Positions 1,786 to 4,700 of a stretch of DNA of 64,000 nt are shown here, piece by piece. The position numbers and the translations under genes were made by a program. Source of the stretch: Balanoglossus misakiensis. Lineage: Eukaryota; Animalia; Hemichordata. The stretch covers positions 6,088,791-6,152,790 of the forward strand of contig CM082596.2 in NCBI GenBank assembly GCA_040954595.2, given 5' to 3'. Positions within the stretch are counted from its first letter, which is position 1. The number at the start of each line of letters is the position of its first letter. The notes under the pieces are model-generated. The model saw only the letters and a list, made by a program, of their open reading frames with translations, did not search any database and was not told the origin of the DNA.

Positions 1786-4700
1786 ATGTCAGAATCAAGG
1801 AGAATTTTTCACCAGTTTCACCTGGTTGACGCAAGTGATCAGGCCAACTTGGCAACGGACGGTGACAAACTCAAAGACTTGATTGAAGAGGGCAACATCA
1901 ACGGCGTGATTCCGAGGAACAGGATGCAACTGCAGATTCTGGGAGACGCCAGGGCGGGGAAGACGAGTCTGAGGAAGAGACTGATGGGCGAGAAATTCGA
2001 CCCGGATGAAGGGAAGACGGTCGGCGTTGAGACGGACATGTGTCAGTGCACGGACGTGGACGAGAACTGGCGCCGTGTTTCCCCACAGGAGGACGACTAC
2101 AATACATGCATGGCCTGGTACATGGCCAAGAAACTCAGGGAGGCCATAAACCAAACGGAAAAAGAATACATCTCATTGAAAAGCGAGTGGGGATTTCTGT
2201 TTATGCTGAAGATCCTGTTGCCTATATCGGCGACATTTGTGATTAGTCGTTGGTTTCACCTGGATAATATGGTTTTCATTTTGATGTCGATATTTGTCTT
2301 CACCGTGTTCACAGACAAGATCAGTTCATACAGGATTGGAATAGGCGTTGCTCTGTTTTTTGTCATTGTTGACACGCTTCATGTCTTTTGCGACCAGTAT
2401 TTTGCTGTAGTTGATGCATGTAGTGTCTGGGAGTTTTTCAGGTTGGTGTTCTTGTTCTTAACTGTCAGTGCCTTTGGTTTTCTGTTGGGCATTTCGCTGG
2501 GGTCAGGTTTACGCTCTGGTATGGCTATCGCCTTCATGGTGACTCGGCATGAAAGTGCCAGCTCTTCGGTGATGGATAACACCTCTTCTCGAGCACTGTC
2601 TGATAGAGCAATCTTGGGCATTGGCGTTCTGCTGGGGGTAACCTTACACACGCTGTACATCAAATCTCTCAGGGCATGGATACGGCCTCTAACAGAATGG
2701 CCGAGGTTCAAAGCTGTCGGTGTTGCAAATTTTCTCGTTGTCTTTCTTTTAGCTGCAATTTGTTGTGCGGTTAATTCTCGTGATGCATTCACACTCTCTC
2801 TGTCTACCTTGGTGGCTTTAGGTTCTTTGATCGCCTTAGAATTTGGACGACCGATTGGTTCAAGAGTAAAGCTAGGCGTGAGATATTCCAAGTGGCTGAT
2901 AAGGTTTGTGTTGGGCTTCACCTGGGCGTTTGTTTGTGGAAGGAGCATGCCAACGGAATTAGATGGCAAAACTATAGTAGGGCTCGCAGGATGCATAATA
3001 TTACTAGCATTGGAGGCATTTAGGGCCAAAAGCTATGCGGGTTGTTGTCCAATACCGTTAAGAAACGTCGTGAGATATTGTCAAGAGACGGCGATAGGAA
3101 ATTCCATACCTCTAACGTTGACTCTTCGCGATTTCCCTGGGGACGAATTCTATTACAACACTCACCACATATTCATAGCCAGAAATGCAATTTTTCTAGT
3201 AGTGTTCAATCTGGCAGACCTGGCCGACGTTCAAACACGACAAAAGCATCTTCAGCGTATCATTTTCTGGCTTCATTCAATACGCTCACATGCAGACCAT
3301 GCAGCCTACTCGGATATATTTCTCGTTGGCACCCACAGGGACCGGGTATCACCCGAGAGAAGGAGGGAGATTTCGGCACTCCTGAAAAGAACGCTTTATG
3401 ATTCAAATTCGATGTACTGCAAACGCCTTGCCATCAACACAGACGACACACCACTGTGGGCAGTCGAGAATTCAACCACCAAAGACGCCGATTTTTACAA
3501 CCTACAAAGAAAGATCCGTAATGTCGCAGGTCAAACACAAAAGGACGCACGAGATACACAAACCGACAAGAAAGGTAAATGCTATATCCGTTGGTTACAG
3601 TTCAAATCAGTTGTAAATGAACAATTCAAAGCAGAAAGCGAGACAGGTTGCTTTCTTCGAAGATGGTTACCAGCTACACTGTTTCCTGGTGAACATGGCA
3701 CAGGGCATAAACCGAGCAGCATCGTCCCGTTTGGTGAACTCTTCACCACCGCAAGGAGATTCTGTTCCATACAAGACAGGCACGATTTTCTCGAGATGTT
3801 GAAGTTTTTCCATGATTCCGGAGATATCATCTACATAGCGGACGATGCCGTTTTGAGTCAGTTCGTCGTTCTTGATCCAGGGTTATTGATTAATGCTGTG
3901 AAGTCCATTGTGAACATCCCCGATGCAAAGGACAGGGACCCGACCATGGCAGAACACTGGAACCGTCTGGCGGCCAAAGGTATCATACACTGCGACCTGC
4001 TGGAACACCTACTTGGGGCCACGGATGAAGAAACCCGCGTCCTGGTGGTACTGCTCCAGTGTTATGACTTCATCTGTCCTCTAGACAGGATTGCCAAGAT
4101 TCCGCACGGCTTCGTTGTCAGAGAATACATGATCCCTTCAATGAGGCCCCTGTACGAGGGGAACCCAGAGCAGCTGGGCCCACGCGCACCTGTTCAAAGG
4201 GTCCTCTTCGATTTTGGCTTCTTCAAACCGGACGCTATACTCACCAGGCTGATGTCGAAGTGTCTCGCCTTCTGCCGTCACGACGAGGTGTACCGAAATG
4301 TGGGTCGGTTTAAGACCAACACGGGCCTTTCATTCAGACTTGAACTGGTGAACCACCTCCCGGAGCAGCATTTGATTAAGGTCCACGTCGCCAGGGTTGA
4401 CAATGTAAACCCCTACCCATTCCTAAACAGGCTGTACAACTATGTTGAAGCTATTCGATGCCGGGAGTTTCCAAACCTCACGTACAAATGCGGTGTCCTG
4501 TGCCAATATCCGGCCCCACACGACGGGTGTCCCAATAAGGACATGTACCACATCCTACCGCTTTGTGAACAAGGGGAAGACTTTCCTGACATTGGATCCA
4601 CGGTTATGAGGTACTGTGGAGAAGCTGAAGAGATCATAAAACTCGTTGCACCAAAACTTGTAAGTGTTGCATCTATCTATCTATCTATCTATCTATCTAT

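Follow-up and report, generated by a model that had tools for sequence, protein, structure and literature searches.

Can a GTPase of the Ras fold carry a multi-pass membrane domain between its own nucleotide-binding motifs, and if so, what might such a domain do there? The question is raised by a Roco gene near the start of the window, by which we mean the whole 64,000-nucleotide stretch of the hemichordate Balanoglossus misakiensis analysed here (assembly GCA_040954595.2, contig CM082596.2, positions 6,088,791 to 6,152,790 of the forward strand). A first-pass annotation had read a gap of about 370 residues between motifs G2 and G3, filled by nine to ten hydrophobic segments, and had proposed that movement of the switches pulls directly on these segments, as in a GTP-gated channel or a membrane-stress sensor.

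The gene has three predicted coding exons on the + strand and encodes 1122 residues in the order Roc, COR, TIR. Coding exon 1 (1786–4659, 958 codons) holds a short N-terminus, the split Roc, the membrane bundle and COR; its ends are given by the ATG at 1786, directly 3′ of an AG, by a GT donor at 4660 and by the colinear proteins of Ptychodera flava. The surrounding stop-free frame (1732–4860, + strand) reaches 4860 without coding because it is prolonged by a microsatellite of intron 1, (CTAT)n and then (CTGT)n at 4671–4793, 3′ of the donor. Predicted exon 2 (4847–4907), a linker with AG and GT ends, keeps the frame into predicted exon 3 (5178–5611), which carries a C-terminal TIR domain and the stop codon and is recognised by Pfam TIR_2 and by the tails of Ptychodera proteins, to which it is 39–64% identical. 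Joined, the exons form a single frame that is 50% identical to a Ptychodera flava protein in a full-length alignment, and among named relatives acorn worms are the closest. Roc starts at residue 44, homologues begin at the same place as the ATG of exon 1, and the insert is colinear with three Ptychodera proteins (29–40% identity). By this homology the segment 2188–3024 is supported as exonic, and the claim that the whole insert lies within one stop-free exon stands. Also in the window are a multi-exon OATP/SLCO transporter gene just 3′ of the Roco gene (6871–10570, + strand), a large gene (17879–27528, + strand) encoding an IPT/TIG domain and cadherin repeats as well as a stalk rich in Ser, Pro and Thr and a hydrophobic segment at the C-terminus, and an exon (56660–57076, − strand) with a weak BTB match.

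The G domain is divided along the chain. Pfam Roc matches in two stretches (E = 1.3e-13), giving a Ras-like Roc domain with G1 to G5 present. The N-terminal half (residues 44–98; 1915–2079, + strand), recognised by Pfam Roc and by the structure model, holds beta1, G1, Thr78, beta2 (residues 89–91) and the conserved Trp95, and the C-terminal half (residues 442–590; 3109–3555, + strand), which phmmer matches to LRRK2 Roc at E = 5e-10, holds beta3, G3, G4 and G5. The five motifs are placed at residues 53, 78, 449, 515 and 561, and read GDARAGKT (nucleotide 1942), KTVGVE (from 2014, with its Thr, T78, at 2017), DFPG (D449, at 3130), GTHRD within LVGTHRD (3322) and ENS within VENS (3463). The spacing from T78 to D449 is 371 residues, in agreement with the earlier estimate, as compared to 26 in LRRK2 Roc (by alignment) and 23 in an ordinary bacterial Roco. 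Among 78 aligned members of the family described below, K59, T78, D449 and G452 are each kept in 77 and W95 in 75; the GTPase motifs are thus nearly invariant, and GTP binding and hydrolysis are predicted. The residue after DxxG is Asp in 40/78 and Gln in 19/78, and 41 of 82 aligned rows retain the G4 Asp; with both positions variable, hydrolysis rate and base specificity may vary too. The query reads DFPG at G3 (3130–3141), with Pro at a position where 69 of the 78 members have Ala and three have Pro.

How the two halves might meet is suggested by an AlphaFold2 model built from an alignment of 82 rows (pLDDT 87.6, pTM 0.86, dropping to 60–70 around residues 131–180). In the model beta2 (89–91) is followed by a helix at 104–154, nine further helices up to residue 420, a helix at 425–436 and beta3 (444–449). 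Superposed on Rab33, it matches 170 of 173 residues (2.6 Å, Z 18.3, model range 43–584), and since whole Rab G domains are covered across the gap, the Roc halves rejoin in the prediction, as had been supposed at first reading. The insert is modelled in the beta2–beta3 hairpin and not on the switches, tethered to the G domain by a linker (residues 95–133, comprising the Trp and a long helix) and by helix 425–436. The first stalk helix (residues 104–133; 2095–2184, + strand) runs on into membrane helix 1 (DSSP H104–154), the second (residues 425–436, DSSP H425–436; 3058–3093, + strand) leads to beta3, and an intact G domain is predicted to hang below the bundle on this two-helix stalk. With the insert in the hairpin, a direct pull of the switches on the bundle is not supported as originally stated.

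The bundle (residues 134–414; 2185–3027, + strand) is predicted to have ten helices with both termini inside, near residues 136–154, 159–173, 181–199, 219–239, 243–252, 272–290, 310–329, 334–353, 369–383 and 396–412, helices 5 (243–252) and 2 (159–173) being short. A Kyte-Doolittle scan of the single sequence gives only 8 hydrophobic segments in 2188–3024, whereas hydropathy averaged over the 34-member group that holds the query protein gives exactly 10, as do the insert helices in both AlphaFold2 models (full protein and isolated bundle); the nine to ten segments first reported therefore hold for the family average and the models, and not for the sequence taken singly. Automatic counts give 11 segments for the sponge group and 9 for a 26-member group, ten helices being verified in the main group only. 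The even number of crossings with both flanks in the cytosol that the annotation had called for agrees with the models and the family hydropathy, and is consistent with the charge bias: from flank to flank, the Lys/Arg density in the 34-member group runs 0.10, 0.04, 0.09, 0.06, 0.11, 0.05, 0.12, 0.05, 0.15, 0.07 and 0.15, and the predicted inner loops are richer in Lys/Arg than the outer in 67 of 78 sequences (0.138 versus 0.068). These loops were set on the query after the column table had been inspected, in a set of 73 transmembrane matches with inserts of 300–410 residues plus five seeds, five matches outside that range being excluded. Two predicted outer loops vary in length, from 3 to 44 and from 6 to 50 residues. 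The glycine-zipper spacing noted earlier was partly upheld, as the quoted motifs are present and GxxxG is modestly enriched (5 in the insert against 1.5 ± 1.1 expected from 10,000 shuffles, p about 0.01), but there is only one true three-glycine zipper, G231-G235-G239.

Modelled in isolation the bundle is compact (pLDDT 86.3, pTM 0.84), with a fold that was not recognised by the methods applied. Pfam assigned no family to the insert at E ≤ 10, either alone or over 51 rows, and the ESM Atlas held no match that could be used. Foldseek found nothing at E ≤ 0.001 among PDB and viral models, and in a VIA comparison with 48,161 chains none reached Z 8; the search of the insert against channels and transporters proposed at first reading yielded no match above noise. 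Absent matches do not establish the modelled fold as new.

COR (residues about 598–958; 3577–4659, + strand) follows directly after Roc. Its Pfam COR-A match (E = 2.9e-7, 30.9 bits) is below the curated cut-off of 35.3 and that to COR-B is weak; the model of the region matches LRRK1, LRRK2 and bacterial Roc-COR structures (Foldseek, LRRK1 at E = 3e-12 and an isolated COR, 3DPT, at E = 1.5e-6), and the model superposes on LRRK2 (8FO9; Z 28.3, 473 residues, 5.2 Å) and on M. barkeri Roco2 (4WNR; Z 26.3). The TIR domain spans profile positions 1–121 of 122 in Pfam TIR_2 at E = 1.9e-5, below the curated cut-off, and the PDB sequence matches of the tail are TIR domains of TLRs, with TLR6 the best (E = 0.0017). 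It carries a Glu at the position aligned with the WC-x-x-E motif of TLR TIRs, a candidate for the catalytic glutamate with which TIR NADases cleave NAD+. The TIR exon, like the swappable death, TIR and caspase tails of the family, was missed by the earlier reading.

A nine-sequence profile run against 1.84 billion representatives gave 1,163 matches at E ≤ 1e-30, the best 150 of which were analysed. Among these 150, 78 have at least three hydrophobic segments between the Roc halves (transmembrane, or TM, members), 47 show no such segment and 25 are incomplete. As TM members went into the profile, three of the 78 being seeds, 78 is a lower bound and not a census. Named TM members (17/26 looked up) come from sponges (Corticium and two Oscarella), the annelid Owenia, the nemertean Tubulanus, the echinoderms Acanthaster and Amphiura, the hemichordates Ptychodera and Glandiceps, and Branchiostoma, with several paralogues per genome; vertebrates, arthropods and nematodes contribute none of the 17, which is not a test of absence. 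A word-based search with residues 100–450 alone gave no matches, and a word-based profile search gave six proteins. In weak two-pattern scans, metagenome contigs yielded no relative and prokaryote genomes a single ordinary LRR-Roc-COR protein with no insert. Taken together, the Roco proteins whose G domain encloses a polytopic membrane domain are a real and conserved subfamily, and apparently an undescribed one.

We scanned 44 proteins picked by length (43 TM members or seeds and one incomplete) for other domains. No N-terminal Pfam domain, whether LRR or other sensor repeat, was found in any of the 44, nor any LRR or kinase in the query protein or in these 44, and Roc starts at a median residue of 46 in TM members (maximum 157) compared with 170 in the soluble relatives. 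Their tails comprise 16 death, three TIR_2 and one caspase domain; 24 have none at E ≤ 0.001, and many of these stop close to where COR ends, perhaps because only a first exon was called. Like the query gene, the Ptychodera paralogues carry a TIR at the C-terminus. A TM member from Branchiostoma floridae (P0038) has a full C-terminal caspase (E = 9.5e-57) and so combines bundle, GTPase and protease in one chain. Two Ptychodera flava paralogues with adjacent accession numbers and contigs of equal length (P0002 and P0003) are 92–100% identical in COR-B over 150 residues (about 801–950) and 30–40% in the insert, which suggests gene conversion within a tandem cluster.

The soluble relatives indicate where the bundle may have come from. 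The Trp lies 10–31 residues past the G2 Thr in 67/69 parsed TM members and 39/42 parsed soluble relatives, and a Pro-x-x-V/I/L motif precedes G3 in 35/69 and 32/42, respectively. The soluble proteins share the flanking Trp-plus-helix and the helix before beta3, with a hydrophilic loop between, and it appears that the bundle replaced such a loop at the tip of a pre-existing stalk. Trees were made from Roc and COR after removal of the insert, using 72 TM rows and 42 soluble ones (rows with fewer than 300 residues past the second Roc half were excluded). All TM members fall into one clade, with one insert-less sequence (P0061) nested inside; support for exactly this clade is weak (FastTree 0.49; SH-aLRT 23.5 and 9), whereas the clade that also takes in soluble P0142 is strongly supported (0.98; 97.6; 99.1). 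By hhalign, homology links the inserts of the three groups in which bilaterian members are named (93–98%, reversed controls under 1%), and homology to the main-group insert was undetected for the sponge insert (probability 13%) and for that of the 26-member group (0.2%). Because the position and length of the insert are equal across groups, it is simplest to suppose a single origin followed by fast divergence, the alternative being separate gains. Among 22 of the 47 soluble relatives, hand-picked for scanning, 10 have N-terminal domains (ankyrin, Neuralized, Macro, DED, CARD, Bcl-2, NACHT and Ras), and in 14 the tail holds a death, TIR, CARD or caspase domain. Examples are Bcl-2-Roc-COR-caspase (P0125), DED-Macro-Roc-COR-death (P0109), CARD-fn3-Roc-COR-TIR (P0118) and Neuralized-Roc-COR-death-TIR (P0102).

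What the bundle does can be approached through these architectures. Our working interpretation, to which we give an even chance, is that the protein is a one-chain membrane-embedded receptor for innate immune or cell-death signalling, with the bundle as its input. Signalling would begin at the membrane and pass through the switch to the effector: a ligand, a lipid change or membrane damage would alter the bundle, the stalk would then shift the GDP/GTP state or the monomer–dimer balance of Roc-COR, and this shift would cluster or free the TIR (or death, or caspase) domain, leading to the recruitment of adaptors. Shifts of this kind have been reported for LRRK2 and bacterial Rocos. PMC8195603 describes Rocos as immune switches with variable effectors. 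As none of the 44 scanned proteins has an N-terminal domain, compared to 10/22 soluble relatives, the bundle is the only candidate input module, and on our leading reading it would supply the input that repeats give in other Rocos. The nearly invariant GTPase motifs, the fast change of the insert with its two variable outer loops and the several paralogues per genome also speak for a receptor. An insert of near-constant length in 78 of the best 150 likewise reads as a fixed, elaborate module. The sensor half of the original proposal is thereby favoured, through the TIR exon and the death, TIR and caspase tails; the channel half is not. Several points count against a receptor. The hydrophilic loops on the same flanks and stalk in soluble relatives mean that the site tolerates inserts and that coupling is not required, 24/44 scanned proteins show no effector domain, the inserts of the sponges and of the 26-member group are not detectably homologous to that of the query, and the TIR and COR matches are below Pfam cut-offs. 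In addition, the published signalling of Roco switch II, as given in PMC6337361 and PMC13345514, is directed toward COR and not toward beta2–beta3.

The rival that survives best, though we consider it unlikely, is that the bundle is a passive anchor or scaffold which only positions an otherwise ordinary Roc-COR-TIR/death protein in a particular membrane, with activation left to cytosolic partners. The insert is the fastest-diverging folded part of the protein (29–40% identity compared with 45–80% for Roc and COR in the Ptychodera comparison) and keeps chiefly glycines and charges at the cytosolic edges and helix ends; such divergence is expected of an anchor as well. Loops that look uncoupled occupy the same site in 47 relatives among the best 150, the nested member P0061 has no bundle (which may be a gene-model artefact), and Ectocarpus Rocos with C-terminal membrane anchors are described in PMC3341825. 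However, ten helices of near-constant length across phyla, with a confidently predicted fold, exceed what an anchor needs, and the members have no alternative input domain.

Improbable, in our view, is a GTP-gated channel or transporter, in which the nucleotide state would move the stalk and open a pore in or between bundles, with killing or ion signalling as an output alongside the TIR/death domain. The continuity of membrane helix 1 with the stalk helix in the model would suit such a device, and the two short helices, then short strands, could line a cavity. The top VIA matches of the bundle, all sub-threshold, are three ALMT anion channels (Z 6.3–7.4, 123–128 residues, 3.9–5.3 Å), and the bacterial protein Tmn, whose P-loop NTPase domain likewise has helices embedded in it, exports Mg2+ upon phage sensing (PMC13001434). 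However, these Z-scores are in the noise range for helical bundles, and the best match (Z 7.4, 124/300 residues, 5.3 Å) covers under half of the bundle. No conserved polar residue was found mid-membrane among aligned family members, where charges sit at helix ends and sequence conservation is low, nor was an internal repeat detected (hhalign probability 2–5%, control 1.9%), and separate effector domains are already there. The GTP-gated channel of the first-pass annotation thus finds no support in conserved residues or in a channel fold above noise. A broader version, in which a new fold gated by a built-in Ras-like switch would unite sensor, GTPase, pore and TIR, death or caspase effector in one polypeptide, strikes us as similarly doubtful; if it were true, this ancient animal family would parallel the defence NTPases, such as Tmn, that bacteria embed in their membranes.

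We regard it as very unlikely that the bundle has a lipid-handling or enzymatic role of its own, for instance as a scramblase or as a lipid-binding or membrane-shaping domain regulated by the GTPase and acting outside immunity. An unrecognised fold with short helices and the many members without an effector tail would fit such a role, but Glu410, at the cytosolic edge, is the sole catalytic-type residue conserved within the bundle, and members and soluble relatives alike have death, TIR and caspase tails. Hardly credible is an artefact, with an intron or a soluble helical domain mistaken for a membrane bundle: although the membrane topology rests on prediction, the segment consists of 279 in-frame codons colinear with homologues, the same layout recurs in 78 clusters, a sponge member with a hydrophobic insert (P0130, Oscarella pearsei) has a record name in what we take to be the format of a transcript ORF call, and charge bias and hydropathy (mean 0.63 for TM inserts, of median 350 residues and 5th–95th percentile 308–386, versus −0.87 for the 47 soluble inserts in the best 150, of median 134) are those of a membrane domain.

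Against known systems, the protein is a Roco by its Roc followed by COR, as shared by LRRK1, LRRK2, DAPK1 and the Chlorobium and Methanosarcina Rocos, and a death-fold or TIR effector after COR is also known from DAPK1 and from invertebrate and bacterial AP-GTPases (PMC8195603). It differs in having no LRR, ankyrin or kinase, and in its polytopic membrane domain inside the G domain. Membership among the LRR-Roc-COR or kinase-bearing Rocos was considered and set aside, with Roc at residue 44 and no such Pfam domain. In the full-text literature, which mostly leaves out subscription papers, and as far as the texts were available, we found no description of a Roco with helices inside Roc: the word transmembrane is used 0 times in the accessible text of the review PMC6337361 and once, about Ectocarpus, in that of PMC4104024, the same coverage extending to parts of PMC11378527, PMC11507063, PMC7075850 and PMC13345514. 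The 12 of 13 supplements of PMC8195603 that were available hold no such architecture among the matches listed, and no mention of six TM-family accessions was found in the literature.

The nearest relatives in the tree are the invertebrate Roc-COR proteins with soluble inserts (P0076–P0163), whose long G2–G3 insertion is flanked by the same Trp and helices; they differ in that the insert is shorter and hydrophilic (median 134 residues) and in their N-terminal domains (10/22). The nearest precedents are the C-terminally anchored Ectocarpus Rocos and the KAP/YobI NTPases such as Tmn. The Ectocarpus proteins (Zambounis et al., PMC3341825) are membrane-tethered and were proposed to be immune receptors, as we propose here, and one member has an insertion of 850 residues in Roc; they differ in that their tail gives way to one or two C-terminal segments and LRRs act as sensor, and in that the stretch inserted into Roc, a soluble repeat, sits between strand 5 and helix 4. 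The ALMT/QUAC anion channels, though the top structural match of the isolated bundle, are related to it only at a noise-range score, with no support from sequence or Foldseek.

KAP/YobI P-loop NTPases (Kidins220/ARMS, PifA and Tmn) also have helices within a P-loop domain, a trait predicted for the query by its model, and act in defence or signalling, Tmn coupling nucleotide turnover to a membrane effect (PMC13001434). As described there, they are ATPases with two helices in the domain, and Tmn is a decamer, whereas the query is a Ras-fold GTPase with a predicted ten. Membership in KAP/YobI was rejected, as the core has the Ras fold and the DxxG of a G domain and is not a KAP-type ATPase with Walker B, and the likeness can be taken as a works-like analogy only. 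Rocos have been studied as soluble switches (LRRK2, DAPK1), and the route of input to Roc-COR is an open question; an integral-membrane Roco offers a natural test of whether the beta2–beta3 hairpin transmits signals. The family suggests that a class of receptors for innate immunity or cell death, with exchangeable effectors, has gone unnoticed in invertebrates ranging from sponges to amphioxus. It would also carry the design of KAP and Tmn, in which membrane helices sit within a P-loop domain, over to Ras-fold GTPases of animals.
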